From Phoronis australis (Eukaryota > Animalia > Phoronida), in assembly GCA_002633005.1 (NCBI GenBank), contig NMRA01000163.1, positions 559,961 to 623,960 on the forward strand: a DNA stretch of 64,000 bases, given 5' to 3'. Both the position numbers and the translations under genes were made by a program. The notes beneath the pieces were generated by a model, which was not told where the DNA came from, made no database searches, and was given only the letters and a program-made list of their open reading frames with translations. Shown here piece by piece: positions 4,621 through 64,000 of this stretch (within the stretch, counting starts at the first letter, position 1; every line of letters begins with the position of its first letter).

Positions 4621-5319
4621 ATGGATAACCATAAAATCTGATAAGAGGAGTAAAACTAGACTATGTGGGTTTTTGAATTTTCAAAATCTGTCATGTAATA
4701 GTGATTTTGTCAACCCAAGCCTTGAGCTATGATCATTGAAGTGTAGTTCCCAGTATGGCACATAAGCTAATAATACTGCATCACTAACTCACAATGGAAC
4801 CTGGACCTGAAAGAATGTGTATAACCAGTTGTGATGATGGAATGATTAAACGACACCTATCAGGATAATCCACTGGTGTGGTATTTTCAAATGAGAAAGT
4901 CATAGTCATAAACTTGATGGTATTTTTGGCTTATTTGAGGCTGACTATGTAGTATGCAGCTGTCTGTAACAAGGCTACTTTGTACCAACGCTTCTATCCA
5001 TAGTTGCAGTCTGAATCGTATCAGCTTTTAACTGTCAGTTTGTTGTTGTGAAATGTACATCTTGGGGTGGTTTCTTAATTTCTTTGACATATCCGCCCAA
5101 AATTGCTTGTAACATGCTGCCTGATGCATTTGGCTATGACTGCTGGAAGATATTTGAATTTTTGGGCGTTGCGAATTCAGACAAAGTCATTGCAAAATAA
5201 TTTTACCGAATTATGCAGTGCACCAAGCTATGTCCTTGCCAATGTTTTGCATTGTTCTATTAGTTTGTAAGTACTGTTTGTGCACTGACGAAGACAAATA
5301 TGACTTCCACAGACAAAAA

Positions 5320-5451
5320 ATGGCTGACGAGCCTGTGACAGCGATGGAACAGCCATCCACTGTTAATGCAACACCGTCTGGCACTGAGGTAAAGAAGAAA
5401 AAGAAGGGCAAAGGCAAAAAAGTGAAAATGACCAAGGCAGAGAAACTACTG
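5320..5451 (+). CDS. EF-hand gene coding exon 1
   Basis: ccacag|acaaaaaATG; MADEPV...KKKKKGKGKK...KLL|gtaagt. Confidence 0.8.
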
Positions 5452-14567: not shown

Positions 14568-14723
14568 NNNNNNNNNNNNNNNNNNNNNNNNNNNNNNNNN
14601 NNNNNNNNNNNNNNNNNNNNNNNNNNNNNNNNNNNNNNNNNNNNNNNNNNNNNNNNNNNNNNNNNNNNNNNNNNNNNNNNNNNNNNNNNNNNNNNNNNNN
14701 NNNNNNNNNNNNNNNNNNNNNNN
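14568..14723. other. Assembly gap
   Basis: Run of N. Confidence 1.
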
Positions 14724-18488: not shown

Positions 18489-18576
18489 ATGTGTGCAATG
18501 CCGTGGATGGAGGACCTCAGTGAACAACAGATCGAGGAGATTGGTTTATTTGCAAGAGATTGGGCATTTCTTCATG
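18489..18576 (+). CDS. GSS: GSS paralog 1 coding exon 1
   Basis: MCAMPW...ARDWAFLH|gtcagg; acceptor ccgcag just upstream. Confidence 0.85.
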
Positions 18577-30500: not shown

Positions 30501-33500
30501 AGTTAATTGTGAACCCGTCCCTGACTTTTCCAGTTACAGCTACACCAAACATGTCACAGGAAACAAAGCTACACTTTTTATTAGTTCAAGTTCAATCTTT
30601 ATTAGAACTCAAATCATAAAATATATACAAAAGCGCAAATATGATCCTGGTACGGGAATTGGGGATAGTTAGGCCTATAAAAGATCTTTAACCCAGCCGC
30701 AGAGCGTCTAAAGCCGCGCACCGTACCAGTGACTGCTGGCAACTCATCGGAGACTCAACTTAAACATCCTTCGCCGCAGAGATAACAACTCTTGAGCTGT
30801 CTCCTGTGAGTCCATTCTTTGTTGAATGATGTTTAGGTAAAAAATAGCCAATATGAGGATTTGAAACCTCTGGACGAATTTTGGTTGCAGTAACTGCATA
30901 ACTATTCTAGCTTTTCCTCAGTCATAAAAAATGAAATCACAGATCTTGCCCACCAACCAACCTCATCCACTGCTTGCACTCTCCCGTTGACTATAAAGCT
31001 ATCCATCTTGTCACGTGGTGAATATCTTGCTGGTAGGCGGTTGAAACAACACAATTTGATTTGGATGTAATAATGAGTATATTGACTAAATGTTTGAATT
31101 TCCCTAAATAAATAATCATAAAGATTAACAAAGAAGGCTAATTTAATCAGTCTGTGATCATGTTTCCCGTTCCTGGCGTCTACCTTGGATCCAGTGTTAC
31201 ACTTGTCCGGTTAGTGTAGGACTCCTCAAGTAAAGTAGTTCGGCATGCCCTGGACCATAAGCGATGTTTTAAAAGTTATTGGCATCTAATTTAGCCACTG
31301 TGTGTTGTTTATAGATGTTTCAGTGTAGCTTAGTTGTATATTAAAAGAATAATCCACGTGATATTATTAACTATGATCAGCATTTGTAAATCCACCGAGT
31401 ATATCAATCACACAGTCGTTAATTGTACCCAATGTTCGTAGTTTTTAGCTTAATAGTTGATCGGTTTTTAAAAATTGAAATCCAAACTTGGTTGTTTTTT
31501 CCATCTGAACACCGCTGTGGTATTTGTTTTTTTATGAAAACTGTTGGTTAATGCGTTTTGAAAAATCGCCAGTAGGCCTATGTACAGGCAGAGATGTTTA
31601 CTACTGTTTATGGCCAGGTAGTTACACTAAATTGGATCTTGCTCGCACTGGACAATGCGGTCCGACTCTGGTGCCACGCTCTCTTTGTTCCTGGTAAAAG
31701 CTGCTCAGGAGGATGAGCGATGAAAAGTCACGCATATCTTTAGAAATGCATGACTTTCATGTAAGCGTAATATTCATGGCATGCCCCCCCCCCCCTCCAA
31801 GCCCAAAATGTAGGTTTTGGGGGACATGTTTGGACCATTCAATTATTGTAACCTTGTTGAATACAACAAGTAACCATGAGTGAAGGAAAGTAGAAATCGC
31901 TTCCGCATTATATGCAGGTTCTCATTCACTCCCTTTCATGCACCCACTACTAAGACCGAACTTAGAGGAGCAAGGGACACCTAATTTGTGCCATGCTCAA
32001 TTGTCTGCCAGTAATGCCAGGATTCGAACCTGTGTCTCCCAAATGGGAGCCCGGAGCTCAAACCACTGAGCCACACTGTCTTCTGTTGTAATATCTTAAC
32101 AACTGATTTGTGATCCACCGTCTCTGGGCAGGTGGTCGCCCCTTACCATCATCCAACAATGTTGCCACCTGTTGCACTAGGCTTGTGAACTGTACTGTTA
32201 CAGTAGTAGCCCATTGCCAATTTCAGTCAAGGAGTGGTAAGTTTGGTTTAGTTGCTAAGACTGAATATAGTATGTCGGGTGGTAGTGTTTGTTTACTTGG
32301 TGGTTGCTTTTCTAATCCAGCTTTTCCTGGCATGATGTTAGATTAAACTAATGGTCGATTTTACTGTTTGTAACAGGAGTGGGCAGCAAGACTCCTGATT
32401 GAAAGGTCCAGCTGTATCAAGTGTCCATCAATCAATGTGCACCTGGCAGGAGCTAAGAAAGTGCAGCAGGAACTATGTAAAAGCGGTGTTGTTGAGCGCT
32501 ATTTGAAGGACGCTGATGCAGCAGCTAGGATCAGAGCCACGTTCATGGGACAGTATTCACTTGAAACTGTACGTATATGTGTAGGCTTACCTATGCAGCA
32601 ACACTGGGACCATTCCTGTGACCCACTTTCTTGACCCGCAAAAACAGTTCAGTGGTGGGGCAAAAATGCCATTATAACCATGATTATAACATGGACACAG
32701 GGCCACGTTCATTGGACAGCTTTCACTTGAAGATGTTAATGAATTCAGTTTACTATGCATCCCCACATACCTGCTGGAGTGCATTTCATTGACCTAAGAA
32801 TAATTTTTGTTTTTTTTTCCTGTGGCTCCATAAGTTACACTTGTAAGGTCTCGAGCAGACTCATGAAACACTCGCCTTTCACTCGCATGATTTTGTTATA
32901 TGACACACATTTGTGAGTTTATTCTTGTGCCTGTAACTGATAACGCATGAATTTTTTGAAGGGAGTCTCTGGTGACCAAAGTGTTTCTATGGCATTATCG
33001 ACACCCGGAAACTTTGTGCTGAAACCACAACGAGAAGGGGGTGGATTTAACCTCTATGGTGAAGACATGGTGCCCCTACTGAAGAAAATTCAAAATTCCA
33101 AAGAAAGGAGTGCTTACATATTAATGGAGTTAATTAAACCAAAGATATTCAGGAATGTCCTCATCAAGTCTGGATCACCAGTCACTGCCGGCGATGTGGT
33201 TGGCGAACTCGGCATATATGGTGTTCTTTTAGCGTAAGTTTGTTACAGTCCTGTAACCACATTTCATTATATTACTTATTACTCACCTTTCGCTGGCAAA
33301 AGAGCTTACATTTATTGTCAGGAGAAACATTAACAATTGACGTAATGTTTTGGGGATGCCCAAAACTAGTGGAATTTTACACCTGAGTGTCCATTTTTAT
33401 ACAGCCCACATAAATATAGCAGTAGTGAGACGAAACTGTCATCTTTTTGCATAACCTTGCCCAAGGTCTATTCCCCTGGACGTGTAAATCCCAGCTGCGT

Positions 33501-34181
33501 GAGGTCTTACACCTTTAATGCAGATGCCCACTGCGCAGTGAATGATTAGTGTCGGGACATCAATGGATTCGGAATCAGGACAAAAAGTCACTTTTAGTTA
33601 CTTGCAAAAGGTGGTCAACTTACTATATTCGATGCGTGTTACTCAAATGGCGTAATGCAAAAATTTGAGCTTTCCCTCTGACATTTGCTATTTATAGCTG
33701 GGACAGTCTTGATATCTCACAAACATTCTGTTTGAAATTTAAGCTGCCATATGTTTTGGAATTGACAGGGGTACCTAGTCCCCATAGTGGCTTAGGATTA
33801 TGTAAATCATGGGACGGTATCATTCACGCAATAGGTCTTTTGAAATTGATATACAAGGTCAGTGAAAACAGTTGTTTATGGGCCCTGCTCTTAGTCACGC
33901 AACTGTCCCAGATGGACCCTGTAACTAAACACAGAAAAGGTAATTCTTTTATTACCCCCTGTGGATTCATGAATAGCTGAGCCCAGTATGATTCCTAGAC
34001 TAGCAAATCCAAATCCTGTGTGGTGGTCCACTCATTTGAAGTTGTCTTTTTCAGTTGCGGTGATGAAGTTATAGAAAACCAGTTTGTTGGGCACTTGTTG
34101 AGAACAAAGTTATCTGGTGTAAAAGAAGGTGGTATTGCAGTCGGTGCGGCTTGCATTGATTCTCCTTTGCTGGAAGACTAG
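18489..34181 (+). CDS. GSS: Glutathione synthetase (eukaryotic ATP-grasp type), paralog 1, 481 aa, 11 coding exons
   Basis: Exons of 88,187,76,140,55,74,165,70,192,272,127 nt give a 1446-nt open frame with GT-AG junctions. Motifs FRSDYM, KQVEFNTI, RNIFDQR, YFRAGY, IKCPS..HLAGAKKVQQ, LKPQREGGG, MELI, GELGIYG, GHLLRTK, EGGIAVG. AATAAA at 34245. Confidence 0.95.
19609..19795 (+). CDS. GSS: GSS paralog 1 exon 2
   Basis: ITMR...LTMFPSPFKRRLYEEAVALQHDFNLL; GT-AG. Confidence 0.9.
20805..20880 (+). CDS. GSS: GSS paralog 1 exon 3
   Basis: IIKVDAFTKGLWDIYERVQEEGVTQ; GT-AG. Confidence 0.9.
21035..21174 (+). CDS. GSS: GSS paralog 1 exon 4
   Basis: LGVFRSDYM...KQVEFNTIASS; GT-AG. Confidence 0.92.
21355..21508. 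mobile_element. Small TIR element with tRNA B-box-like core
   Basis: About 35-bp inverted termini (CAAACATTTCTAAGTCTGGTCA..GCCACCTGTG and its reverse complement). Core is homologous to 38239-38320. Confidence 0.65.
23412..23466 (+). CDS. GSS: GSS paralog 1 exon 5
   Basis: FLMSSYLGVFGGDNLNNW; same length as the paralog 2 exon. Confidence 0.88.
24231..24470. repeat. Minisatellite, about 48-bp unit, about 5 degenerate copies
   Basis: Unit resembles ACTGCTTCATGGTACAcACCATTATGATGTGAGACTGCACTAATTTTT. Confidence 0.8.
25997..26070 (+). CDS. GSS: GSS paralog 1 exon 6
   Basis: LPQNDPTQGMAKGLVKAWQVF; GT-AG. Confidence 0.9.
26373..26537 (+). CDS. GSS: GSS paralog 1 exon 7
   Basis: ILFIVEGESRNIFDQRQIE; GT-AG. 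Confidence 0.92.
27291..27360 (+). CDS. GSS: GSS paralog 1 exon 8
   Basis: VAVTYFRAGYTPEFYP; GT-AG. Confidence 0.92.
29348..30325 (+). mobile_element. Helentron-associated (HINE/DINE-like) non-autonomous element with internal repeats
   Basis: T-run start, subterminal hairpin GCGCCCACATA..TATGTGGACGC, (GTCC/GTCT) microsatellite, repeated GCGCCACCTAGTGGC units and an internal duplication of about 430 bp. Confidence 0.7.
31850..32078 (-). mobile_element. tRNA-derived SINE
   Basis: A box TGGCTCAGTGG and B box GGTTCGAATCC on the - strand (32016-32076), followed by a non-tRNA body. Confidence 0.7.
32377..32568 (+). CDS. GSS: GSS paralog 1 exon 9
   Basis: EWAARLLIERSSCIKCPSINVHLAGAKKVQQEL; GT-AG. 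Confidence 0.92.
32962..33233 (+). CDS. GSS: GSS paralog 1 exon 10
   Basis: FVLKPQREGGGFNLYG...YILMELI...GELGIYG; AAG acceptor, gtaagt donor. Confidence 0.92.
34055..34181 (+). CDS. GSS: GSS paralog 1 terminal exon
   Basis: GHLLRTKLSGVKEGGIAVGAACIDSPLLED*. Confidence 0.92.
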
Positions 34182-42266: not shown

Positions 42267-42462
42267 NNNNNNNNNNNNNNNNNNNNNNNNNNNNNNNNNN
42301 NNNNNNNNNNNNNNNNNNNNNNNNNNNNNNNNNNNNNNNNNNNNNNNNNNNNNNNNNNNNNNNNNNNNNNNNNNNNNNNNNNNNNNNNNNNNNNNNNNNN
42401 NNNNNNNNNNNNNNNNNNNNNNNNNNNNNNNNNNNNNNNNNNNNNNNNNNNNNNNNNNNNNN
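42267..42462. other. Assembly gap
   Basis: Run of N. Confidence 1.
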
Positions 42463-46089: not shown

Positions 46090-47116
46090 AGCTAAGTGTA
46101 GTAAAAAGCGATTAGAACAAATAGCCCCGTTTAGAGTTGTTCAACAGGCTTTAATGCTAAATTGGAGCAAGATGAGAGACTACTGACTTGGTTCCTCAGA
46201 GAGGAATTAACTATTTTTTGCAGGTTTGGCCTGCAGTGTTTCTGGGCCAACAATTGAATAACTGGACGACCGACTAATTGTGCAAAGCAACACGCCTGCA
46301 TTAAAAGGAAGAATACTACTAATAATAAATTACAGGTCAATGGACAGTTGTACCAGGGTCGTCGGGGTAGTCAAGTGCGAGGTACATGCCATCGTTTTCT
46401 ACTGAAACTATTTTTGATAAAGTGGGTGAGATGATTTAAACTCTGATTAACTGAGCGTTATTTTATGCAAGTGCATGTGTTGTAACAACTGGTCGCTTGA
46501 TAAATCACTTACGTCTGAGAACACATTTTTACATTCGAGAAGTTGCAAAATCTATTTCCAACGCCTGAAAGTAAGATTAAAAATTGATTCACTGAAACTG
46601 TGTTACCGCTATTCAAATTTTAACTTATTGGAGCGGGTTAATCAGTTTTCGAACACAGAGAATATTTAATTGGCTTACAAAAGCCGGGTGATAGGGGTAA
46701 AATCCGCAAATGTTTTGTTCATGATATTAACTGCACCAATCTCTTGTTTCATAGAAGCACACAAAGTGTTTGCTCGGGGAACTTCTAATCACATGCTGGC
46801 GATAAATATTCATGTAGCTTGAATACGCTACACTTTCATTCATCCAGTCACATACAGTTGCTAGTAGGAGGCACACTGAAGGATAGAAATTCAGTCATAA
46901 CAAGAAAGCAATTTGTCGAAAAGCGTTACTAAACTGGTCACTACTGCTAGTGCTGTATGTACTGTATTTGTCGCCGCGGTTGCATTTTTGCTCAGAACTT
47001 GCGCGGTCGACGTGTTACTCTTGCAGGGCTCGTTTGATTTCCAGTGAGGATATCTCACTGTTGACAGGTCGATGTAATTGAAATTCACTCGTTTATTCCA
47101 GAGATTGGGCAATGCT

Positions 47117-47204
47117 ATGAGCGCAATGTCGTGGATGGAGAACCTTAGTGAACAACAGATTGAGGAGATCGGTTCGTTTGCAAGAGACTGGGCGTTTCTT
47201 CATG
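47117..47204 (+). CDS. GSS: GSS paralog 2 coding exon 1
   Basis: MSAMSWMENLSEQQIEEIGSFARDWAFLH|gttagt; acceptor ttccag at 47100-47101. Confidence 0.85.
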
Positions 47205-50200
47205 GTTAGTCGTTTCATTATTCTCGTAACTACTCTATCTGTATCTGGATATCACGTTCAAGGAAATCGTAGGCAACTAGACAAACTTGGAATAGAACAA
47301 AACCTATTTTAACTTTTTTCTTTCGTGGATGTAGGAAAAAGTAACATATTGGATGGCTGACGTGTGTTTCAAAATATCTCGGGCACTCGCGTTGCTTAAC
47401 AAAGGATGTGCATACAACATTACGTCTCAAAATGCAATTATTCAGGTTTGCCTGAAGAACAATGGCTGCACTTGATTGAGAAATCTGATTGGTTCTCGAT
47501 GTCTAGTTCCGGCTTTTAAACCAATCAGGTGTCTTAGCCGTTTGACCCAGCGTGACTGGCTACGTCAATCATGTGCAGCCAATGTTGATTTACGTAATTC
47601 TTACTGTGTGGAAAATGACTTGTTCATTTGCAGCTATAAGAATCAGAACAAGTGCTTGCCACATGTGTTGTATTGTGGGTGTATATCTTAGAATCAGAGT
47701 GGTGTTGTGCTGTTTCTTCACATGAGGCAACTCGCACGCTAACATTTAGCCTTTGTTTCCCTTTCGTAATTGCGACCGAAACTTCGCTCGTGTCGTACAA
47801 CTGTAATCGTTACATTCGATGAAATACTGTTTTGCATAACACGTGAGCTCTGAAGATGTTGCACAGTTATAAATTCACGCTCCAAGCTTTTGCCGGTAAT
47901 TTTACGCTCATAATTTTAGCAAGATGTCGTTAGATTTTAGTACCAGTCCCCGAGACCACCAATAATTCTTATTTGATGTAGTTTTGTGGTGCAAATGGTT
48001 TGTTATTCAAATGTCTTGAATAAAAAAATGAATGATTTGCCACCAACATTTAGAAATTCTACTACAATACCCCGAAAACTGTTTTTTGAAATGTTATATA
48101 TCATCTACACAGTCACACTGCTAAGAGTATAAGCGAATGAAGCTTGGCCTAAGTATTGAATAAGCACGGTAATTTCAACAAATAAAATAAAAACATTGTC
48201 AGGCAACCTGCTAGATTTATACTTTGGGACCTCAATATGTACAAAAACTAAATCCCTGTGATGGCTGGGGTAGCCCGGCCGTAAACATAACGGTCAGTCT
48301 TCGATATTTTTCAAGCCTTTACACTTGTACATGTATACTTTGCACTTGAGATTTCACCTTCTGTGCACTCCATGACATGAGCAAAAATACGAGCATAGAA
48401 TTACGAGCGAAAAATGCGGTGAGCGTAAAATTACGGGCTCACGTGACCTAAAATCCAATTTCTCATTGGATATAACAATTACGAGCGTAATTACGGGCGA
48501 CACACACGACAGTGACTAACCTTTCCTAAGCGTTAGGCACAGCCGCACTGCTGAAGAAAACCTATTCGCCAATTTCTTTAATACTGCACCAATTTTAAAA
48601 ATTCGAAGACGGCTAATATTTCCTCTTCAATTTTAAAAACAGCCATGATGGTCGTTTGCTGTATTTATTATTCGTTTTTTGGCTTTGAAATATTTATTGT
48701 TCGTTTTTTGACTTTGAAACTCGTACGCATAACAGGCACGTTGTTATGACAACAATTATCTCATCCAATACACATTCGGCCAAGCCCATGGATACCGACT
48801 AGCTCACTTACATGTAAATCTGTGACGGCGCAATCAAGTCTTTCACTTCGGTGTGAAAGACGCGCTCGTTCTCATCCACCTGCGTGCAAATAGCGTACGA
48901 GTTGCCTAATGCAGGTCGGGCCTAATACCTTGTGTACTGTGAGTTACGCCGGCCGTCCATTTGTTCGCTATCTGGGCTCCCGTGGCCGTCTTCGCTTGCG
49001 TGTCCGTGTGCATGTGTCGAGGCAGCAACTATCCATTCATTTTTTATGAGAAGCTCGAGCGTATCCTTGGATTTGTCATAGGTATTCAGTTCTCTTTTGA
49101 TATCAACATCTATCATGTCCAACTGGCAGATCTATGATATGGAATTGGTAGTGGGGCCGCCACAGTTGAAAATGAAGAAATGTCCCCTTAGCCTCTAAAT
49201 TCGGCAGATCCAGACCCCGAATCAAGCTAGATATGTTTTTACCAACTATTGAGCCAACTCTTGCGAGAATATCTTCTCTTTTAGTAGCGGCGTCGGGTCA
49301 CTGGGCACAAAAGATAACCGGAACAATAGAAACTTAGATGGCGGGTATACGAGATCTTTCGAAAAGACTGTAAATCTAGTACACTTATATTTTCGCTTAG
49401 TTCGGGAATTGGAACTGCATGAAGAACTTTTCCAGAGGTCATGTGCTTCCGCCTAAATAAGAGGAATTTCTTTACGTATTGGAACTGACACAGAAAATTT
49501 AGTAGAAGAGCAGAACAAGGAACGCTTATAGCCACCTAACTAACGTTCATGATAATTTCCCTTCATCCTCTGTCATGACAGAAGACTACTCTCTTTACGA
49601 TGAATTCGGCTTCCCCCCAACCACTATGACGGGGTCCAGAACGTTTTGCCAGAATACATTTGGCTTGTGCTGTACTTGTTCCACTTTTGACAACCAGTCT
49701 AACACGGATCTATGCAATGGAACGCACCATGTCGCACCATGTGTATTCATAATTGTTTACAATTTTCAGTGCAATGTGAAAGTTACTAAGCGTCTGTTAC
49801 AGGGATCACCGTGCGCACACCTGAGGCTCCTGAAATTTCGAATAAAGCAATGCACGTGTCTATGACTATGTTTCCTTCACCTGTCAAAAGACAGTTTTAT
49901 AATGAAGCCTTGGCACTGCAGAGTGAATTCAACCTCCTCATGTTTCGAGTTGCCTGTGATCACGATTTTTTGGAACATTGTCTAAAAAGGTAATGCATAT
50001 AGAGCGTTTGCAATTACGCCATCAGTAACCGGAAGTGTGTCATGTTGGAGGACAAGCAATCAGTTGAGTTATCGCGAGTTGTTAGCTGCTTATAATTCCA
50101 ACAGTTTGCATGGACTTCAACTATATTTTCATACTCCAAGGAACATTTAATTTCGACCTCGAGTTCAGAATTCACGCCACGCAAAATGGCCGACCCGATT

Positions 50201-53200
50201 TAAAGAAGTGACCCAAATTTTGCCACAAAAGTTGCATTAACTTTGTACTGCTTAACTCTATTTTAATACATTTTTATTTTTTTTATATGGGATGCATTAT
50301 CTTTCCTATGATATTGGATAATTTCCTTAAAACGAAAAGAATTGGTTCGACTGCCCTATTGCAAAACTACTCTTCGGTCTTTCCCCCTTGATGCTCAATA
50401 ATTATTGGAAGACAATATAACGACGTAACATCTCAATCACCCCTGCTCGAGCAGCCAGATATTGCTCAAAATTTTACCATTAGGCCTACACTGAATAAAT
50501 TCTATCGAGAATTCAGCTGAGAAATGTGTCTGCCTCACGATACCACAATAGTACTGAAATGTTTGCCCTCCAACGTTGGCGGATGACCTAATTGGTGACG
50601 TCATGTGAAAACACTATACATGATCTCGTGCTGTAAGTGATTAATAAAACTGGACTTATTCTTTGAAATGAATGAGCCAAACGGGATTCATTGGTTTTTT
50701 CTGTCAGTTTTGGTTAGTCCTTCCTAACACTTGATGTACCATTGTCTTTTCGACTTAATAGTACCAGGTGACATTAATGAAAGCAAAGTCTAACTGCAGT
50801 TTCTGAAGATTTATTCACTGGAGAAATGGCAAAAACTTGCATTGAAATTCATGGTTTTTCGTCAAAATGTAATGTTTTAGGCAAAAAATACGACATTTAG
50901 GATCTATTGTACTTTGGTTGGTTCTATAACAATTTCTTTATTTACTTTTTCTTTTTTTGGTTCTCGTCACGACTTCGACGACTGCGATTTCCTTTTTGAA
51001 CATTACTGTGGCAGCCTACCTCATCTGTGGTATTTGTGTCATTAATCCTGTTGTGTTATCCAACATTTCAATCGTCATTGACATAAGATATAGTGCACAT
51101 AATGCGGGCGCACAGATCTTTCCGTTTTGATAGGACGCGTATGACGTGCCTCAGTGGCGACTGTTGCTTCGTTTTGATTCTGTGTTTGTCAAAAGAAATA
51201 ATTTAAGTTCTGAAACGAGACCACATGCACGTGTTGTACACGTCTCTGTAATTTTGTGGCGCGTTTTATCACGTTTGAAATCGTCTCAAATTTGTTTTAT
51301 TTCAGTTCAAATTTGCGATCACCCAAAAGAGTTCTGAATACATTTTGACAATATTCTGTGGCAGAAATGTTCCTTACATTATGCAGAACACGTTTTCTTT
51401 TGCTCAGAAAGTGACATTGCGTGCCACCGATTAGGCGTGCTACAATACGGTACGTCAGGCATTTATTACTGGAAAGAGAACGGTGCCATTACGTGGTGGA
51501 CGATTGTAAATTTGTGTGACACCTCTAGTCACTGTGAATTACGATTTGAAAAGGATCGCAAAAATATTTATTTTCTTGATTCATTGCAAAAGATGGATTG
51601 TTATGTTTGAAAATCTTGGTAAGGCTAAAACTGGATAGAAGCTCCTGGTCTCTTTCAAACTCATTTTGAGACGAACGCTCACCAACTAAGTTTTTAAAAA
51701 TTTAAAAAACGCTCCTCCCCCGCATTAATTTCAAGCAGGGCCTCGTGTTTTTGTGCTTTTATTTTTGAAAAGCTGCAAAAAGGCAGGTAAGCAAGGTTAA
51801 GCAAGGTTTGAGAAGCCATGATTTGCAAAGCGATGAGTAAAAGAAAACAAATCCCGTATCAGGTTTGCTCGTCTCAAGTGTATTTTCCTTTCTGAAAAAG
51901 TGAGCAATTAAACAAATACCGTACCACCAACTCGATTTTCGAAAAAGTAACTACTTTTTTGGCCTAATAAGCATTTTAGAACATCTTTCACCATTCAATA
52001 TTCAGTCATAGCTTGCCTTACCGTTCATCAGTCATAGCGTATTTACTATTATTTGTTTACAGTGTAATTAAAGTTGATAGTTATACAAGAGGACTTTGGG
52101 ACATTTATCAAAGCGTTCGGAAAGAGGGCGTAACTCAGGTAGTCCATTAATTAAACTATTAAAATATTCACGTGTCTTGTAAAACAGTTTTATCTGACAT
52201 CTAATTTGGCATCTGGGTTTTAACGTATATTCGTACTCAAGCATTGATAGCTGACTAAAGGTTAAAGAAGATGCTCTAATTGCACGCTCACCTATGCTAT
52301 TTAGAAATCTAAAATCATATGCTGAAATTTAAACCTGCTATTAATAAATTTCGATCTGCATTTTTATCATCGTTTAACTCTAGTTAAAAATATAACTATT
52401 AAATTTCTAAAACACACGGGAAATTGTCTACATCATCGACTTTGTCACTAGCAGACAGTGCCATTTCCAACTGGTAGTTGTTGAGTTTCGCGCTGCGTTC
52501 TTAGATTGCGGATCGGATCGGTCGAAATACAATTTGTTCTGAACTCTTTCGCTCGTATCTGAATTCTTCATTGTCATCCTTGTTATGGTAACCTTGCCAC
52601 TCATTTTCATCCAAAATGTTCTCACTCACAAAATGTCAAAGGTCCGCCGTTCAATATATTCGAACCACGGCGCAAAGCTGGCTGCGGGCCTGATGCTTAA
52701 TGTGTGAGTTACAATGCAGCTTCACTATTTTGTGTTCTCCTAATTATTTACGTTCACTGAACTCGACCGTGAACACCAAATAGTAAGAAAGGCTGTGATA
52801 ATTAACTTTTTAGAATCTGTTGCTCAATAAATATTTATTGTCTTTACTTCCAGCCCTATGCCCTCTGTTTGTTCAGAAATGACTTCATGGTGCACTGCCC
52901 AAATGAAGATGAGATGTGTTTGAAGCAGGTTGAATTTAATGTAATTGCTTCATCCTTGGCTTCTCTCGCTCAAGAAGTTTCAGGCTATCACAGGTTTGTG
53001 GTAAACGGAATATTAAAAACAGGTGTACTCACAGTGTTCGCCCAGGTTAACTCCACTTCCAAATTTTCGAAAGATATACTTTAAAATAACCAAACATGTG
53101 CTCTGTGCACCAACTGCTTCTAGTGCCTTCAAATCGTCTAGTTCTCCATGGACACTCGTTTACAAAGACAATTTGCTCCTAATGTACATGTTTCTCTCAC

Positions 53201-56200
53201 AAACGATGCACATCGCCTATGCCTATCTGATGTTTTGCGTGACGCTTACTCCTGCAGTGGCTGCCATGAATGTTACTATTAACTCGGGTTGATTCCCGCA
53301 TAATCTGACCTTTTAATTTTTGTTTTCAACACTCGTGCTCGACTCAATAGTCTCTCTCTGTTTTTTGGTTTCTCAATTTGAACAAGGCTTAATTCTTACT
53401 TTTCAGCGAATAGCAGAGTGCTCTAGCTTCATCCAGGGCCTAATTAGATAGCTGTTCATTATATAAAAAATATTCTGTGTTGAAGGAATAATTTAGTAAA
53501 CGGAGCTTTGTCAGTTTTTTGTCCATGTAATGCATGTCATGCGTTGTTGTATCATTTTACAGATTTTTGATGTCAAGTTATCTTGGCGTATTTGGTGAAG
53601 ACACGTTAAACAGTCGGGTATGTTTACTTATTAACCACATATTGATTAGCGCAAATGCGCGCCTATGCAAAGGTGTGCGAAGCATTTGCCGCAAATCCAC
53701 GCTACGGCCCACAAAAGGATGTGAATGGGGGTTGCTTGGATCACCTGTTGGAGTAGATGTTAACTTGATTTCAGATTATGTAATTAAAATGCCTTTAAAT
53801 GAATTATGGTCGCAAAATATTTACTTCGAATGGGATACCTGGCTGCACCTATAAGTCAGTCTTGGACACTTGGATTTGTGTCAGTTTTCTTCGTAAACTA
53901 ACACTAGCGAATTATCTTACTTAGATACATGTATGGTCAAATTATCTTCACATGTAACCACATACTTCCAGACTAACAAGGCATGACATTGTGGTGTAGT
54001 ATTGGTTATAAAAACAATGCGAAGTAACTATTTTTGCTTTGATAGCTTCCCCTTCTGTCCTGTCTCGTAATTTCTCTCTTTGTGGAACTGTTTTTGAGCC
54101 GACTCATGAAATGTCGTCCATTCCCATGACATGTTGTTTGGCAGTTCTTGGCAAGCCGACTCAACTTTTAATTTATGACATAACGTTGGCCTCAAAATAG
54201 TTCCTTACTCAGGTCAGAATTGATCTCTGAAGTGACATTGTTAGGCCATGTTCGACCATAAAATGACCTGCCTGGTCAAGCTGGTTTCTTAAACCTGCCC
54301 TCTGACAGCTGTGAACATTCAGTTCTTTTCAAGCCTAGGGTTCAGAAATTTGGTGTTACACACCTCTCAACTATAATCTGAAAAATTATTAAAATCTCGG
54401 TACTATAGCAAAGATACAAAATCTATGAGAAATATACCCATTGCTTTTAGTTACTAAGATAATTTGTTTGAATTATTTCTAGGCAGTAATATGCTAATAC
54501 TTACATGACTAAAACTTTATTTAATAATTGTGAAGTGAGAGCGTATGACAAATTTCTGTCTTAAATCTTAACTCAATTTTCATGAAAGAGACCCCAGAAG
54601 TCACGTGCAACTCATATAAGGGACTTTTTGTGGCTAACTTTAAAATTAGTTTTAAGCGGGAGATGGGTTCGCAGCAGTTTAGTTCAACTAATTCTAGCTG
54701 TGTGACTGCTTCTTCTGGAACATTTAACTGGTAGAAATAAGAGGATGCTACTTGAACCTTGTCAAAGCTCTAACGTTTATAGCCATTTATTACGTAGTTT
54801 GTTATTTCATCAACGCTTTTGTCCAGGGATATCCCATTGCCATTTCAATTTGTTTACTTCAGTGGAGTAGTTTTGACGTTGGCGTTTTTTCCTCTGTGAA
54901 AGATGTTCGATGAGAATTATTGTGTAATGCATCTTCTAATTTTTACCTAAACTAGATTTATTTTTATTTCTATGCCATTTTAATTTGACCGAGGACAAAT
55001 AGTTTCAATTACAACAAGTAATGCAGAAATAATCGAGAGTAAACAGTTTAAATGGTTGTTTTAGAACTTGTCAACGTTCAATTCAACCTGTCGTCTCTGG
55101 TAGGCCCACCATGTGAAACTTTGAATTCATTGAAACTCATTGATATTTCTTAGCTTCCACAAAATGATCCGAATGAAGGTATGGCGAAGGGACTCGTGAA
55201 GGCTTGGCAGCTCTTCGGACAGGAAAGGTACATTGTTTACGCCGTGCGTTTAAGGTTTTAACAACTGTCTCGGCTAAACACACACACTGGAATTTTTTTA
55301 GAAATTTCACTTTCTAAGATTGTGCGTTTGAGGATTAACATTTTCATAGATTTTATCCGCGGAACTCACACTTCTTTAAAAGCGCTCGTATTTCCGTGAA
55401 CATCTGCCAACAGCGAATTCCACCTCCAAAAATGTGAACTATTCCCTTGAGCGACACAAAAACATTGCATTTACTCTCAATTTAACCATAACCACTACTC
55501 TTCTTTGAAGAAGACATACATGTACATGTAAAAGAAGTTTCTGCTCGCGTACCTTTTCAGCAGTTCCTTGTGTTTGGTCTAGTGACATTTGCATTTCCTG
55601 GACATGTGAATCTTATCCTCATACGTTGACATCGCGATGCGTACTTGTACTCACCTTGATGTACGATATCAATAATTACAAAGTAACATCATATGACTAC
55701 AAGGGACCCTTGATGTCAACTCAGGCGACTTCATGGAGCTTGATTTATTGGATCTCAGTTATAAAACATTTCTTTTTTTCAGTGCAGTTATATTACTTGT
55801 TTGTTCGCAAGAAATTCGGAACATATTTGATCAACGTCAACTTGAGATTGCTATTATTCGACTTGATTCTCGCATCAAAGTCATTCGGAGAAGTTTGCGA
55901 CAAGTATGCGACAGGGCCTCAATGAATTCCATGAAAGACTTAGTCATGTAAGTACTCAAAACTGGTAGATGAAAACAGTAACTTTACAGTTCACATATTA
56001 GACATCTAAGACATCTGTGAAAGGGTGATTGTAACCAATCTATGGCTAGCGTGCGACCAAAATATTGCACTGTCAAATTTATTCACTCATATGTACAGGA
56101 GTTTTCAAAAAGCTGATAAATCCTCTTTCTGTTGAAACTGGCGAAATTTCAGAGTAAACATTTCAATTGATTTTCAAATGTTATTCGAAAAAATATTGTT

Positions 56201-59200
56201 CGTCTGATTTCTTCTCCGGTTGTCTCCTTAACTTCGACCATGCTACTTGTAGACAAATTTCGACGAAATCCGACAGGGGTCACTTTAGAAAAACGTGGCC
56301 TCAAGTCTATGGATCAGTTTAGAGGTACTATGGGTCACGTTAGTATCGTCTGTCCTTTTTAGATTCTGTTCTTGGGGCTGGCATAATGAGTGTGATTTCG
56401 TCTGCTGACCTTAGTACATACATGTAACGTTTCGCACGGATAAGCGTTTGATTTAAATAGCTAACTGCATTTCAATTAAATTCACAAATCCGCTCTTGGA
56501 ATAAGTATTTTCACAATGTGTTTTCCCTGTTGTCGGTGACATTGTTGTTTTGATCTCTAACGTTAATTTCGGTTCGCTGCCTTGCGTTGTCACTGTGTTA
56601 GAAGCTGAATGCAATACGTACATGTATGTGCGCAATATTTCGACACCGTTTTAATGTGCCGTTTAGACGGAGAGCAATGACAGTGCAACATTTTTAAGCG
56701 ACGATGGCTGCGACGCACTTTCCTCATTTTGCTAGCAGATATTGTTTAAATGTTTTGGTGAGCTCCTATACCCAGCTCATGCAACCACGCTCACTGCACT
56801 CCGTAATTTGTGAAGGTTTTATCAGAAATTCATATTCATTTCTATATCCCAAGGTCTATTGTTGTCGCCTTCCATGCAAGCTAGTGTTTTCAGAATCCTC
56901 ATGGTGGTAGGTTAAAACACAGAAATCAACTCACCGTACCACATGCGCTTTACGTGTGTCCATGAGCCTATAATGAAGATGCGCCTGTATCCAGAATTAG
57001 GCGTACACGTACATATTCGTGCGCCTGTTTTGTGAAACACTAATGAGTAAGAGCCAATTTTCAAAATATTACGTGAGTGAACGTGGCATATCCGTTTTAA
57101 AATCGTAAACACTGAAGTGTGTATTCAACTCTGAAGTGTTAAATGAAAACTAGCCATTAGGCTGGACTTAAAAACCTAATCTTTTTAGACCACTGATCGT
57201 TTTGTAAGCAATAGGATTTTAAACTGTGTCCTGAAACATAAGAAACCTGATTTGGAGAGAAAAGCATGTTTAATTACTACATTAGTTAGAATTAAGGTCG
57301 AGATGCCTGAAATGGTCACGCGGAAAAGATAATGAACCCTATTTTAGTGATTTCTACCAATCGTTGTTTTATTCCCTGTTAATGCATCGTTAGGGCCGCC
57401 CTTGAGTGACAAAAAATAAAACAGGCGTGCATTAAAAGGACGTGAAAACCTCGCAAAGCCACGCTACATTTCGTGAGACATCGCCCTGTATTATAAACGA
57501 ATTACGTGAACACATTTAGCTTCGTCGTTTTTCATAGGTAGGCCAAAACCGGGTTTCGTACCTTGTAGATTACTAACAGTGAAGTCATTTATATTCTCTA
57601 AATTTGTTCACCTACTTGTTACACTATCGTCTCCACAACATGAGATGATTAGTAAGTTAGAAAAAAAACTAGTAACAATATGCGTCAGTGGGACCACTTT
57701 TATTCCAATCTTTTCTCGCGAAGGTTGTAAAGCGATTCACATCCACTTCTTTATCAAATCACTGCTAAGCCTATCTTGTGATGACTCCAATCCAAGAAAT
57801 TATCTAGCTTTTGAAAGAAGTATTTTGAAATCTTAATGAATTTCCAAGTCCAATTTCCTGTCTGGAGGGAGAATATTCCTTTTGAACCACTGTAGTACAA
57901 CTCTGGTAAAAAAAAACTTTTATACATTTGTACGTGGTGTGAGCATAACTTTGTATTTATTTAAAATCTTTGGACACATGAAACTTTTTCTGCTACACAT
58001 GGAATTTCATCTCTCTTAATCGAGCTCTAAAGCTTTTAAGCTTTAGAGCTTAAAAGGGAAATAGTGTGAACTTAATTATTTAGATATTCACTGAGTTAGT
58101 CAACACTACCGCCCATTGTCTTACTTAGTTCCGGTCAAATTAACTCCACGTGTAACCAGGTGCAGTATTTTCTGACGAAAAAAGCATATCACTGTCTTGT
58201 ATAACTGGGCATACAGCAATACCAGGTAACCATTTCTACTTTTGAAAACTTGTTATGCTTCCGTTGTTTGTAAGTTGTTCCTTTGGCGAATTATTTTTAA
58301 GCGAACTCACGAAATGTCGTCTTTCCATGACATATATTGGTGACAATTCTAGTAGGTGAGCCATCTCGTGGACGAGGCAGTCTCGCCATCTGGTGACAAC
58401 ATACCTAGATGAAAGCAAGGGTGATTCCTTTAAAGTTACTTTACCGAAAATTTCCCAGATTTTTTCTAATATCGACTTAAGCAAAAAGACAAATGTTCCC
58501 CGTGACCAATGCACCCCCGTATTCCTTCGCTTAAAGGCCAATATATCATTTTCCATTGTTCTCTAATGGTTCAACGTTTCCCAGGCAAATGGCCCCCACA
58601 CGTGAATTCAATTTCTGCGGTTAAATTGTGCCTTTTCGCGCATTAGATTCTTAAACTCATGTACTGTAAGTCAATAACCCCTCAATTAAGAAGTTCCAAG
58701 TGCTCATTGCGGTATCAACTAAAACTGCACGTTGAGTCGTTTTGTTGATTTTCAGAGATGACAATACTGTGGCTGTTACCTACTTCAGATCTGGCTATAC
58801 ACATCGAGCTTATCCGTCTGAAAAGGTTAGTTTGCTTTATTACCAGAGTAACGATGTGCTTTTAAAATGTGTGGTGTCATTCCGCATGTGAGCACATTTA
58901 TGCCCTTGGGTCTATGATTGAAGGTGCGGTTATATTATCCGGAATTTTCCCATGCGCCTGTGTATGAATCATTTGAATAAAATCATGTGAATGAAACTTG
59001 ACCTTCTGTTACAAAATGAATGGATTTCTCACGTTCTTCCATTCAGTGAGCCTTTCGGTGTGCCCCCATACTGCACACGTCTACACCTTACAGGTTATTT
59101 GCCCTCTTCGCGGACACTGTTATCAAATACACTCCTTGCTGTTATTCTGGGCTGTGTGAGATACGCATCTTTGACGTGGAGACGCGCGAGAAAAGCTAAT

Positions 59201-62200
59201 TTGATCATGTGCCTCGCTTGCAATGCATTGCGATATCTCGCGAAGGCTCACGTGATCTTGAATTTTTGCAAGTTTCCTGAAGCGAGTTTATAAAAAATCG
59301 CACGCGAGGTCCCACGCTGGTATGTTTTTAAACCTACGTCATCGGGAATTTCGTCACTCTAGTGGCTGTCCGATATTCGAATTATCGTTCTCGTTTCTGT
59401 ACGAAGCAAGTTTGCAACGTGGCATGAGGGCAAACACGTAACTTCCGCGAAAACATCTGTGCTGCAATAGTACATTCAGTAAATGTGCATCTTAAGTCCG
59501 TTACATGTGTACATGTATGTAGGGTACACATCTACAGCGTTTGTGACGATAATTGTGGATTAATATATGTTGTGGGTTATGATATCTCCATTCATGATAT
59601 GCAAGCCGATTTAAACTCGGGCGATATCACGAATATCGATTTTGTAACCCACAGTTATCATCACGTGCTCTTTCGGCAACGCTGTATATTCGAAGAGTCA
59701 AAAAAATTATGGCGGCCTTAGTCAAACAATTCAAAGTAAAAATATTATTTAGGCAGTTTGACTGCTTACAACATATGACATAAATGTAAAAGCGAAGTTG
59801 CACGTGTCTGAAAAACGACCACGACGTCGTCCACGAGCATAGTAGCCCCACAGGTTGGAAAACCCAGGTCTATGCCCAGCCACCCAGGACACTTGCCAAG
59901 CACCTGCGGCGAAACAAATTTGCTTACGGAACGGAAACAGTGAATTTTATGGCATAACTAATCATTCCAACGTCACCGACCAATCACTTCAGTGGGCGCC
60001 ATTTTTTTAGGGAACGTCAGAAGGCTTCCGAGCATACTCACCTTTCACTCTCGTGATCTTGCTTTTTCGCAAGATTCATGTGTCTACGGAATGCAACCCA
60101 GAACTTGAGTTCTTTGTTTAAACGCAAAATCAAAATACAACAAACAAACAACGTTTACGCGCGAAAAAGAACACAGGATACAACCTTCCGTAGGCCTATA
60201 TGGCACATCATGTGAAAATTACAGGTGATTACTGTAGGAGAAGTCAGGCGAGACCCACGGCCACTGTGATGTCTAAGGTACTACATGTAGTCGTGCGTTC
60301 AGTTTCATAACTAAAATGGATTCTATAAATTACGTCATGTAACAATGTTGTGAATGAACAGTAATTTATCTAACAACACTTTGCGATTGGACTTTTGAAA
60401 AAGCCCGGGGTAATGTTGCCACATTGATATCGTTGTTTATTCGCTAATAAGCAGGTTTAGAGTTTCGTAGAGACAAGAAGCTAGCAAAGATAGTGATTAT
60501 GTAGTTCTCTTGTAATACATGTACAGTACATGGCGATATCTCGCGCTCGTCTTGCATTTCCGCGAGATTCTCGTACCCCTGAAAATAGCTCGGCACACAA
60601 GTTGGTGATCTGAGATGCTTTCCGTAGTGCAAGTTTCTAGCGAGGAAGAGCGAGATCGGGCAAGACCAAGAGGGAGTTTCGCCAGAAGTCTCGAAACCTC
60701 ACCGGCGTAGACTAGCAAAGTGGTCGCCACTGAAGTAATTGGGAGGCGAGGCTGAAAAGTTTAGTTATTGGAGGAAATTTAGGCCTATGATTTCCGTTAA
60801 AGAGGTGAAGGCTTCCACTATGGCAAGTGTCACTACAAAACACTTCGTTTCCACTTGTACGGGCCGCAAGGTTTACGAAAACGCGCCTAGCTCGGACAGT
60901 GCTGCTCCCAAGTACGGACAGCACCAATTTCACTATCTAGATGCGGGACGTACACTGTAGAAGCGCAATTTCGCCACTAGGTGCATACTTAAGCTTAGAT
61001 TAAACTAATTACCAAATTCACTGTTTGTTTATTGTAGGAGTGGGCAGCGAGACTCCTGATTGAAAGGTCCAGTTGCATCAAGTGTCCATCAATTAATGTG
61101 CACTTGGCCGGAGCTAAGAAAGTGCAGCAAGAACTGTGTAAAAGCGGTGTTGTGGAGCGCTACCTGAAGGACGCTGATGCAGCAGCTAGGATCAGAGCCA
61201 CGTTCATGGGACAGTTTTCACTCGAAACTGTACGTATATGTGTAGGTTTACTTAAATTCCGACGGCGACACGGGGACCATTCCCATGATCCACTTTCTGG
61301 ATCCGCAAAAACAGTTCAGTGGTGGGCAAGAAGGCCATTATTGCAATATGGAAACTGACATGAATGTAGACGGTAAAAATATTTTTGTAAAGGGAATGAC
61401 TTTATGACATTTTCGGTTAGTATTTTAATTTACGCACGTTAAATTAAAAAATAACGTGCGTAAAACGGTGATAATGGGTGATAGTTCAAAACATATTCTG
61501 CCATGCGTTCCGTTGCCTGATTTATAGTGATGGCATTCAGTTGGTGGCGGTAAAACAAAAAGCAGGTGGTGGAAACGATTTCGTTGCCGAGCTTGTAAAT
61601 TCCAGCCTTGGTGAGGGAACTGGTCCCTGGAACTCAGGACTGAGTCCCCGGGACTTGGTCACGGAGTCGGCTCGTGCGTGTCGAAGAGTTTGTTGGCCCG
61701 AAAGGGTGCAATTGTATAGCTGGTTTGGTTTCTACTGCTCGGGCAACTGGTGCCACCGTAGTTGGAATTGACTGAGGCGCGGACGTGGGATCATTTCCGT
61801 TTCATGTAAATGGTACTGTAACGAAGACGTGTTGTATTCAATCAGTATTAAAAATCCCATCTCTCAAGTGGTGACCTCTATTGACTTCACGTTACTGTTG
61901 TGTCATCCATAGTGGTATCCGCTATGCAGCCTCAATGACTGTCGTCTTGTAGTGGGCCGCGTTCCGGCCGTAGACCCACTCGCAATGCAATTGAGACGTT
62001 TTCACTCATGGAACGGAAACACTGAAGTAATGTTTGCTAGAATCATTTCTTCCATAAATTACTTCACTGTTTCTGTTTCAAGCTAATTGACCTATCGCCA
62101 GGATTTAGAGTGACTGTTTAACTGACCAATCGGAATGCAGCATTCTTGACGCACCTTCATTTCCAAGCCGCATTATACCCGTCAAACAACACGTGGTCAG

Positions 62201-63212
62201 GTAAAACGTACTGTCTGTTTGTCGACTTTAGGCAAGTAGGCGGAGCTTGCGATAGGTCAATTACGAAAGGAACAGTGTCGTGTGCGAAAATAAAGGCAAC
62301 TCTAGAGAAGAAATAGTATTGGGTGACATCATGAGAACGTTGCAACAAAAGTTTGTGGTATTGCGTTACAGTGAGGAGAATATAACAACTAGGAATATTG
62401 CATGAGTCACTGTTAATGAGATATTTTAGCTACGCTCTTCCAAAAATAGTTGCTAAACGTCGGTTTTGTTAAGGAAGAGAATCGTTTGTTTGATCTTACA
62501 GTGTACCTTTGTAGGGTCCCGTCGGTGACCAAATGGTTTCTATGGCATTGGCAACACCCGACAACTTTGTACTAAAACCACAGCGGGAAGGAGGGGGAAA
62601 TAACCTGCATGGTCAAGACATGGTGCCCCTGCTGAAAGAAATTCAGCATTCAGAAGAAAGGAATGCTTATGTATTAATGGAGTTGATTAAACCATGGGTA
62701 GTCAGGAATGTTTTCATTATGCCTGGATTGCCGGTAACTTCTGGTGACGTAACAGGAGAATTAGGCGTATTTGGTGTTCTACTAGCGTAAGTTTCGAGCT
62801 CAGTTTTCTTACATAGCTTGCCACGTACACTGCACTTTACTGTGGATGACCAATTATGGAAATCTAATGTCTTTGTATCAGCAAAATCACCGCGGTAATT
62901 CCCGTGGTCTTTACGGCGAGGTTACCCTTCTGTAGTGAATGTCTTTCGTTAGCTGTAATTCTTTTGAACTTTCTGTTTGTAAAGTAACCTTTGTAAAACC
63001 TGCTGTAGATGTCGAACCGGCAAATCAAAGCCATGCGTTATTGTCTTTTTATAACTCCACAAGGCTCTCGAATCTACCTTTTCAGGTATGAGGACGAAGT
63101 AATTGAGAACAGGTTTGTTGGGACTTTGTTGAGAACAAAGTTCTCAGATGTGAAAGAGAGTCGTGTTTTAATTCGAGCTGCTTGCGTCGATTCTCCTTTG
63201 CTGGTAGACTAG
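47117..63212 (+). CDS. GSS: Glutathione synthetase-like paralog 2, 481 aa, 11 coding exons, divergent A-loop
   Basis: Same exon lengths and phases as paralog 1, no stops or frameshifts, all junctions GT-AG. Motifs [53 protein letters not shown], LLRTK. A-loop reads ESRVLIR. Confidence 0.93.
47755..48530. mobile_element. Degenerate inverted-repeat element in GSS paralog 2 intron 1
   Basis: TAATTTTACGCTCA and CGCTCGT motifs on the left are mirrored by TGAGCGTAAAATTAC and ATTACGAGCG on the right. Confidence 0.45.
49803..49989 (+). CDS. GSS: GSS paralog 2 exon 2
   Basis: ITVRTPEAPE...MTMFPSPVKRQFYNEALALQSEFNLL; GT-AG. Confidence 0.9.
52063..52138 (+). CDS. GSS: GSS paralog 2 exon 3
   Basis: VIKVDSYTRGLWDIYQSVRKEGVTQ; GT-AG. 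Confidence 0.9.
52854..52993 (+). CDS. GSS: GSS paralog 2 exon 4
   Basis: LCLFRNDFM...[11 protein letters not shown]; GT-AG. Confidence 0.9.
53563..53617 (+). CDS. GSS: GSS paralog 2 exon 5
   Basis: FLMSSYLGVFGEDTLNSR; GT-AG. Confidence 0.88.
55154..55227 (+). CDS. GSS: GSS paralog 2 exon 6
   Basis: LPQNDPNEGMAKGLVKAWQLF; GT-AG. Confidence 0.9.
55783..55947 (+). CDS. GSS: GSS paralog 2 exon 7
   Basis: [19 protein letters not shown]; GT-AG. Confidence 0.9.
58756..58825 (+). CDS. GSS: GSS paralog 2 exon 8
   Basis: VAVTYFRSGYTHRAYP; GT-AG. Confidence 0.9.
61038..61229 (+). CDS. GSS: GSS paralog 2 exon 9
   Basis: [33 protein letters not shown]; GT-AG. Confidence 0.92.
62515..62786 (+). CDS. 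GSS: GSS paralog 2 exon 10
   Basis: [16 protein letters not shown]...YVLMELI...GELGVFG; GT-AG. Confidence 0.92.
63086..63212 (+). CDS. GSS: GSS paralog 2 terminal exon
   Basis: GTLLRTKFSDVKESRVLIRAACVDSPLLVD*. Confidence 0.9.
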
Positions 63213-64000
63213 CCAGGTAAGTTATTTTTGGCATTCGATGCCAAAAAGTGTGTGTTCATTCCAATTGTAAAAAGCCGAATATTTTCTAAAATATCGGCGT
63301 TTCTTTGCCATAGGGCTAATGTGTATTTTCTAAAAGTTTTTATTCAATAACAAATAGAAGCTTCCACGAAAATGGAGAATATCATGTTTACGTGAGGTGT
63401 CCATACATTTACTCTTGACTATTTCAAGTTATCCCCCCTATTTGACTTCATACGTTCAAGAGTTATGTGGTCGATTCTTTCAGCCTTATTATCAGATGTG
63501 ATCTTTGCACGTGCATGGTTATCATAAAGGCACTTCATGGTGGAAATGACCCGCTTTTAAAAATGTCACAAGTTAGGAAAGTTTTCAAGAGCAAATTATT
63601 TCGTAATCAACGTAAAACTAGTCCACGAATTCACCATTCTTTGCACCTGCAGTAGTGTCCTGCGTTTAAGACACAATGCATACAACTGCTTACTGAGTCA
63701 CAATCCAATTAAGCAGCAAATAAATTTTCGGAAAAACGTTTTTCCGTATTTCCTTCTTCCTGGAATGTTGCTGTTGCCTTTAAAGTTCTACGTGTGACCA
63801 GCACCTATCAAATCATGAATGGTATGGCGCAATAGTTCTACAACTTGTCAACCATAACTTCTGAAATTCCAGTTAAAGCGAAGGGGTTTATTTCAACAAG
63901 ATGAGTTACTGGCCTGTGTTTCTATTGCAGGTTGTGTTCTAGTGGTATCCAACAAATGCATTTAGGTCACGGCTACCATATAGGCTACCGTTGTGAAGTT

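Follow-up and report, generated by a model that had tools for sequence, protein, structure and literature searches.

Two genes for glutathione synthetase (GSS)-like proteins stand in tandem in the stretch of Phoronis australis DNA analyzed here (64,000 nucleotides of contig NMRA01000163.1, called the window), and the second of them, paralog 2, lacks all three glycines of the A-loop, which binds the acceptor amino acid. The initial annotation took this loop as the mark of an active ligase with a new acceptor. The question raised by the locus is whether paralog 2 is still a peptide ligase and, if so, which substrates it would join.

Structure and transcription of the tandem genes

The coding span of paralog 1 is 18489..34181 and that of paralog 2 is 47117..63212, both on the + strand. 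The two genes have equal exon lengths and phases, with 11 coding exons, GT-AG introns, and open frames of 1446 nt each without internal stops. Both encode proteins of 481 amino acids, which are 75% identical. Exons 1 to 6 of paralog 2 are located at 47117-47204, 49803-49989, 52063-52138, 52854-52993, 53563-53617, and 55154-55227, and exons 7 to 11 at 55783-55947, 58756-58825, 61038-61229, 62515-62786, and 63086-63212. A 5' UTR intron (46955..47101, + strand) was defined by an RNA joint from 46954 to 47102 with GT..AG ends (2 and 3 reads). A 3' UTR intron (63217..63930, + strand) begins 4 nt past the stop codon and has an approximate far end, with a loose end in 3 reads of RNA run X1 located near 63933. 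The N-terminus of paralog 2 is collinear with that of paralog 1. Paralog 2 belongs to the eukaryotic GSS family, as PF03917/PF03199 scored above the Pfam gathering cutoff in all six exons scanned; the last exon scored 26.3 bits versus 41.6 bits for paralog 1. A further GSS copy was sought within the 64-kb window, and none was found beyond paralogs 1 and 2. Runs of N occur at window positions 14568-14723, 15746, and 42267-42462, and neither GSS-like gene is touched by them. The description of paralog 2 as intact in the initial annotation agrees with this structure, and every residue that it listed as kept is present. Residues are numbered as in human GSS, via the bird GSS P0074, which aligns to human 2HGS one to one without gaps.

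Transcription was examined in RNA runs X1, X2, and X3, raw-read data sets selected by species label, with about one-fifth of each run covered. Seven of the 10 coding introns of paralog 2 were seen spliced at GT..AG joints, as was the 5' UTR intron, and the joint of the last intron was read 6 and 8 times. For introns 6, 7, and 9, no joint in paralog 2's own form was found among the joints listed, and run X4 had no listed piece on paralog 2 exons. The loop region (63157-63183) was covered at a mean depth of 6 to 10 in X1 and X2 with no alternative letter listed there, and 8 + 8 reads linked the gene's own exon 10 end to the last exon. Absence of transcripts had been named at the outset as grounds for giving up the proposal; instead, paralog 2 was spliced, and its loop motif SRVLIR was read unchanged in X1 and X2. 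An assembly error in the loop was rejected because these two runs read the same letters. The corresponding motif of paralog 1, GGIAVG, was likewise present at the loose ends of X2 and X3 RNA reads. At position 63123, paralog 2-type reads accounted for 8 of 9 reads in X1, 10 of 12 in X2, and 0 of 11 in X3, giving a ratio of 18:3 in X1 and X2 versus 0:11 in X3 (Fisher P = 3e-6).

Reads on exon 9 revealed a third paralog outside the window, whose flanking exon sequence is unlike that of both window genes. Its marker letter was found in 123 of 129 exon-9 reads in X1, 107 of 126 in X2, and 5 of 17 in X3. The letter specific to paralog 2 was found in 5 of 133, 6 of 117, and 0 of 15 exon-9 reads, respectively, indicating low expression. 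The family thus numbers three or more genes, of which paralog 2 is a minor one. Third-paralog reads were placed on window 58768-62562, and the S-loop translated by eye from their joint letters keeps Tyr270 and Pro272 and has Leu at 275. The last exon of the third paralog gave no alignment to paralog 2 at 80% likeness. In X1, at window 61041, 20 third-paralog reads apparently passed from exon 7 directly to exon 9, versus 29 reads with the intervening exon; the apparent skip omits the 70-nt S-loop exon and shifts the frame.

A-loop change and selection on paralog 2

The A-loop core of paralog 1, GGIAVG, is encoded at 34128..34145 (+ strand) by the codons GGT GGT ATT GCA GTC GGT, and that of paralog 2, SRVLIR, at 63159..63176 (+ strand) by AGT CGT GTT TTA ATT CGA, corresponding to GGVAAG at human residues 459-464. 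These codon strings were given correctly in the initial annotation, whose start at 63156 adds the preceding Glu codon. The loop was compared with two sets of related proteins. From 120 listed homologs, 91 of 380 to 600 residues were retained (29 outside this length were dropped), 90 of them with the loop aligned. The second set was drawn from 147 new representatives of 50% clusters, of which 99 had an aligned loop and Arg or Lys at 450; the remaining 48 were fragments or had different ends. At the sites of the canonical frame (Gly459, Gly460, and Gly464), paralog 2 has Ser, Arg, and Arg. Gly was found at these sites in 87, 89, and 90 of the 90 aligned homologs and in 85, 92, and 97 of the 99 representatives, and Arg at 460 or 464 was found in none of either set. 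None of the 90 homologs had the paralog 2 residue at 460, 462, 463, or 464; among the representatives, Leu462 and Ile463 occurred twice each. Val461 is the family consensus (77 of 90 homologs), and therefore at most five of the six loop positions are new in paralog 2. The loop had been called completely rewritten, which holds for the three glycines but not for position 461, where the change from Ile to Val yields the consensus. Glu458 and Arg450 are kept. By sequence comparison, the A-loop of paralog 2 is the most altered among the homologs examined.

A run of six differing residues is in itself not rare at the divergence of the two paralogs (P ~0.15, shuffling 120 differences over 417 codons). 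By conservation weighting, however, the loop change is unusual. Among 94 columns that are at least 90% conserved in the 91 homologs, 8 depart in paralog 2 only, and 3 of these 8 are all three conserved columns of 459-464 (hypergeometric P = 4e-4, with the region chosen post hoc). Private departures at conserved columns numbered 8 in paralog 2 versus 1 in paralog 1 (P = 0.04), and the protein branch of paralog 2 was 0.227 versus 0.126 for paralog 1 (FastTree, 38 sequences); polarized changes overall, at 21 versus 13, did not differ significantly (P = 0.23). As origins of SRVLIR, neither a compensated frameshift nor a small inversion was favored: 9 of 18 bases match both with a -1 shift and in register, and the reverse complement matches 8 of 18 at best.

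The divergence between the paralogs was dN 0.153 and dS 0.682, a ratio of 0.22 (0.24 without exon 9) that is a pairwise value spanning both branches together. The per-exon ratio never exceeded 0.55 and was 0.07 in exon 1 and 0.44 in exon 7. Paralog 2 is under purifying selection. In the six loop codons, pN was 0.56 and pS was 0.37, based on few changes (7 and 2, respectively), and the gene-wide pS was 0.45. In a neutral simulation with substitutions only (2000 runs per distance), the probability of no stop was 0.0005 at distance 0.17, the distance needed for five loop changes, and the probability of at least five loop changes was 5e-5 at distance 0.03. The joint probability of five loop changes and no stop was below 1e-4 over distances of 0.03 to 0.17. 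These results indicate that the loop changed within a gene that stayed constrained, and the change fits positive selection or local relaxation of the loop equally well.

From exon 9 into the beginning of the adjoining intron (61038..61330 in paralog 2, + strand), the paralogs are unusually alike. Exon 9 is 93% identical in nucleotides, with dS 0.33 and dN 0.007, and 82 of 100 bases are alike in the intron that follows, versus 50 to 63 elsewhere. Gene conversion is the likely source of this similarity, and the conservation of exon 9 is weaker evidence because the tract looks converted. The counterpart of the tract in paralog 1 is window 32377-32670, where the third paralog also aligns at 93% or more.

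Donor pocket, ATP core, and related proteins

The densest cluster of nonsynonymous change between the paralogs was not the A-loop but protein residues 211-218, which carry human positions 211 and 214 (8 changes per six codons versus 7 in the A-loop). Positions 211-214 of the gamma-glutamyl pocket (55805..55816, + strand) have Ser at 211 and Ile at 214 in paralog 2, with an acid at neither. An acid at 211 or 214 was found in 89 of 90 homologs, in 69 of 71 representatives, and in paralog 1. Over the whole pocket (211, 214, 216, 220, 267, and 270), paralog 2 reads S, I, N, Q, R, Y and thus keeps four of the six residues (Asn216, Gln220, Arg267, and Tyr270). Glu213, present in paralogs 1 and 2, might stand in for the lost acid; E214 presumably pairs with the alpha-amino group of the donor, to judge from the charges. 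A third cluster of change falls on the S-loop at 272-274 (HRA; 58802..58810, + strand), where Pro272, found in 89 of 91 homologs, is replaced by His. Three of the five runs of at least three differing residues sit on substrate-lining segments. Excerpts of PMC6297838 describe E214 of the human enzyme as a gamma-Glu-Cys-binding residue and report a 94% loss of activity for P272A. The losses at Q211/E214 and P272 were absent from the initial annotation. Since the gamma-glutamyl pocket and the S-loop are both changed, the identity of the donor as gamma-Glu-Cys cannot be taken for granted, and the donor side of paralog 2 appears to be altered alongside the acceptor side.

The ATP side and the catalytic residues are retained in paralog 2. 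At the ADP-pocket positions (S4 Table of Lilley), it is identical to the human enzyme at 13 of 15, with Val143 and His375 differing, and the ATP/Mg pocket and G-loop are preserved, with QREGGGN intact. The cysteine pocket (R125, S/A149, and S151) reads Arg, Ala, and Ser, and Ala149 is found in 79 of 90 homologs. The catalytic set of R125, E144, N146, K305, K364, the G-loop, E425, R450, and K452 is complete.

Paralog 1 is near-canonical, with E211 and the GG..G loop kept, and its transcripts were seen. In its exon 10 (region of window 33045-33050), Phe occupies G-loop position 372 in place of Asn, and Met occupies 152. Position 372 is Asn in 91 of 91 homologs; in the wider set of 99, it is Asn in 86, His in 9, Tyr in 2, Phe in 1, and Gly in 1. 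Paralog 1 may therefore be a not fully ordinary GSS by its sequence, but because position 372 varies among the 99 representatives, it was not treated as clearly noncanonical.

Paralog 2 was compared with characterized enzymes. With human GSS (2HGS; PF03917 and PF03199), it has in common the fold family, the length, the ATP/Mg pocket (13 of 15), the G-loop, and residues R125, R450, N216, Q220, R267, and Y270; it differs in SRVLIR for GGVAAG, the lack of an acid at 211/214, P272H, and Y375H. Excerpts of PMC2845819 describe the glycyl carboxylate as bound jointly by R450 and by main-chain amides of the A-loop, at V461 and A462, and report that the side chain at 462 varies among ordinary GS enzymes and that the first two loop glycines are almost fully conserved and the last one fully. 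Because the backbone makes the contact and position 462 varies (Leu in 2 of 99 representatives), Leu-Ile at 462-463, which had been read as a sign of a new acceptor, is not diagnostic. The accompanying argument that two Arg residues would suit an anionic amine such as taurine is weak and amounts to a guess, since the glycine carboxylate already has R450 and the backbone as partners. In the consulted parts of other reports, D458 influences glycine binding and cooperativity, residues 212-236 are named as a dimer-interface region (bioRxiv 10.64898/2026.06.09.730884), and the human mutation G464V causes deficiency (PMC11725857).

Two plant systems provide measured new products from GS duplicates. 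In legume homoglutathione synthetase (hGS), specificity is ascribed to Leu-Pro and the gene arose in tandem (excerpts of PMC6192434), in agreement with the precedent cited in the initial annotation, which places Leu-Pro at the same two positions. Rice OsGS2, a hydroxymethyl-glutathione synthetase, prefers serine (excerpts of PMC6508825). Both are GS duplicates, as is paralog 2, and soybean hGS (3KAJ/3KAK/3KAL) also has Leu at 462. In contrast to paralog 2, the soybean hGS loop, GGVLPG, retains GG..G with Pro at position 463, and the plant enzymes use gamma-Glu-Cys and are of independent origin. Whereas hGS is marked by Leu-Pro at 462-463 within an intact GG..G loop, paralog 2 has Leu-Ile, and the glycines are lost.

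The GS-like effectors of cyst and reniform nematodes (Lilley et al. 2018, PMC5919673, in excerpt; 5OEU/5OEV/5OET) resemble paralog 2 as animal GS duplicates with a changed substrate pocket, a kept ATP side and catalytic Arg, and an inferred function. As described in the excerpts of that report, the clade 3 proteins lose canonical activity, accept no tested terminal amino acid on gamma-Glu-Cys, and have no product identified, and clade 1 and 2 enzymes with altered Ala positions still prefer glycine. Unlike paralog 2, the nematode effectors are secreted parasite proteins, and they keep 0 to 2 of the six gamma-glutamyl residues, versus four in paralog 2. Gpa-GSS22 keeps GG..G (GGISVG), whereas paralog 2 has its A-loop rewritten; by sequence, the loop of paralog 2 appears more radical than that of legume hGS or Gpa-GSS22. 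Paralog 2 has lost the GG..G that soybean hGS and Gpa-GSS22 keep, and replacement of the last of these glycines in humans (G464V) causes deficiency; the loop is therefore as compatible with lost ligase activity as with a new acceptor.

A wider survey found no ortholog of paralog 2 in three homolog searches and the search of 50% representatives, the best matches being 55 to 58% identical over exon 10. A profile of the last exon gave 8 matches among 215 candidates, all generic GS, and GSS trees gave paralog 2 no supported sister group. The GG..G frame was noncanonical in 20 of the 99 representatives. Ten representatives were identified by name, eight of which belong to the 20; they included Mercenaria, Ptychodera, Branchiostoma, Lineus, and Aplysia, plus a flatworm and a chytrid fungus. 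With the last two among them, mild changes of the loop are no rarity and do not have to imply new chemistry. Altered A-loops were found in the GSS-like proteins P0200, P0184, P0180, P0165, P0143, P0055, P0085, and P0007, most of them with altered gamma-glutamyl pockets too, from Mercenaria, Ptychodera, Branchiostoma, Lineus, Aplysia, syngnathid fishes, and Nelusetta. Uncharacterized proteins of Mercenaria (P0200), Ptychodera (P0184), Branchiostoma (P0180), Lineus (P0165), Aplysia (P0143), and Vanacampus (P0055) are like paralog 2 in coming from free-living animals and having altered A-loops. None of the six is an ortholog by tree (no supported grouping), and they are unlike paralog 2 in that none has Arg at 460 or 464 and in all of them position 211 or 214 is acidic. 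Another Mercenaria copy, P0039, has the GG..G frame, and the several copies in syngnathid fishes vary in their loops. Literature word searches, with most subscription journals outside their coverage, returned no report of repurposed GS copies in free-living animals among the papers listed.

Candidate functions of paralog 2

Paralog 2 should be filed neither as a canonical GSS nor as a homoglutathione synthetase, but as a variant of the known repurposed-GS kind. It is an intact, spliced, and constrained GSS duplicate with the ATP-grasp core kept, and as the best explanation, held tentatively, we suggest that it is a peptide ligase working with ATP on substrates different from gamma-Glu-Cys and glycine. 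A ligase with both substrates changed is favored because the catalytic set is complete and the new residues concentrate on substrate-lining segments. By analogy with GSS, R125 and S151 would hold a Cys-type donor, whose carboxylate would be phosphorylated; the activated donor would then be ligated to an amino acid, and R450 and the 461/462 backbone would still grip the carboxylate of this acceptor. Without its three glycines, the loop would form a lid of different shape, able to admit a larger acceptor. On the donor side, N216, Q220, R267, and Y270 remain and the acid at 211/214 is gone, a combination that would fit a donor with a glutamyl carboxylate but with its alpha-amino group blocked or missing. 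Ordinary glutathione would probably come from paralog 1, from the third paralog, which is more abundant, or from an unseen gene. Legume hGS and rice OsGS2 offer precedents by analogy for new products from GS duplicates; by the same kind of analogy, with human G464V and P272A, the changes may simply cripple the enzyme. The part of the initial proposal that survives is an intact, transcribed, and constrained gene with its ATP and catalytic residues kept, whereas its ordinary gamma-Glu-Cys donor does not follow. It is also possible, though doubtful, that paralog 2 is a working ligase for a thiol peptide other than glutathione and the extreme member of an unrecognized, repeatedly evolved class of remodeled GSS-like enzymes that build small peptides in clams, sea hares, ribbon worms, acorn worms, amphioxus, and pipefish.

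Paralog 2 could instead be a catalytically crippled subunit of GSS, an enzyme that is obligately dimeric and cooperative: it would fold, dimerize, bind ATP, and tune paralog 1 or the third paralog, its A-loop having drifted freely. We consider this rather unlikely. It is consistent with a loop pN near the neutral pS, with the conservation of Gly464 (90 of 90 and 97 of 99 proteins) and the deficiency caused by its replacement, with changes (P272H and loss of E214) at residues needed for activity or gamma-Glu-Cys binding, with the nearly unchanged exon 1, and with low-level coexpression alongside the other paralogs. However, full retention of the purely catalytic set is unexpected in a long-dead enzyme, and the dimer-interface region 212-236 is among the more diverged parts, as the ratio of exon 7 shows.

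In the reading closest to the original proposal, paralog 2 would join gamma-Glu-Cys to a nonglycine amine (beta-alanine, serine, taurine, Glu, or Asp) and so make a glutathione analogue. The Leu462 in common with soybean hGS, the kept cysteine pocket and four gamma-glutamyl residues (versus 0 to 2 in the nematode effectors), and the plant precedents speak for it, but we judge it improbable given the lack of the nearly universal acid at 211/214, the glycines and Pro463 of hGS, and, in the excerpts of PMC5919673, the failure of clade 3 proteins to take any tested terminal amino acid on gamma-Glu-Cys. Quite improbable in our judgment is continued synthesis of glutathione from glycine, less efficient or with altered cooperativity, in a gene kept for separate expression. 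Backbone contacts in the loop, the kept V461, E458, and R450, the glycine preference of nematode clade 1 and 2 enzymes in the same excerpts, and the difference between runs in paralog 1 and 2 reads would agree with it; two Gly-to-Arg changes at near-invariant sites and the losses of E214 and P272 would not. A young decaying pseudogene that has yet to acquire a stop codon is highly improbable, for although low expression, the lack of reads in X3, and the longer branch are compatible with decay, the simulated probabilities and the intact ATP residues and splice sites contradict it.

Measured new products of GS duplicates are known from plants, and a new activity is presumed in plant-parasitic nematodes. 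If paralog 2 is active, its product is a small animal peptide that the textbook glutathione pathway does not include; if inactive, it would be a pseudoenzyme subunit of a cooperative dimer, which is of narrower interest. The recurrence of remodeled GSS-like copies across marine animals suggests a question wider than one genome. Paralog 1, next door with 75% identity and the same exon structure, is a ready loop-swap control for donor and acceptor choice. Elsewhere in the window, a 257-codon open frame at 1305-2078 (- strand) encodes an Arg/Ser-rich protein with a Cys-containing tail and gave no Pfam match. Upstream of the GSS-like genes, a multi-exon gene for an EF-hand protein lies at about 5158-10143 (+ strand), and the best matches of its last exon among 40 candidates were uncharacterized lophotrochozoan EF-hand proteins with 45 to 57% identity.
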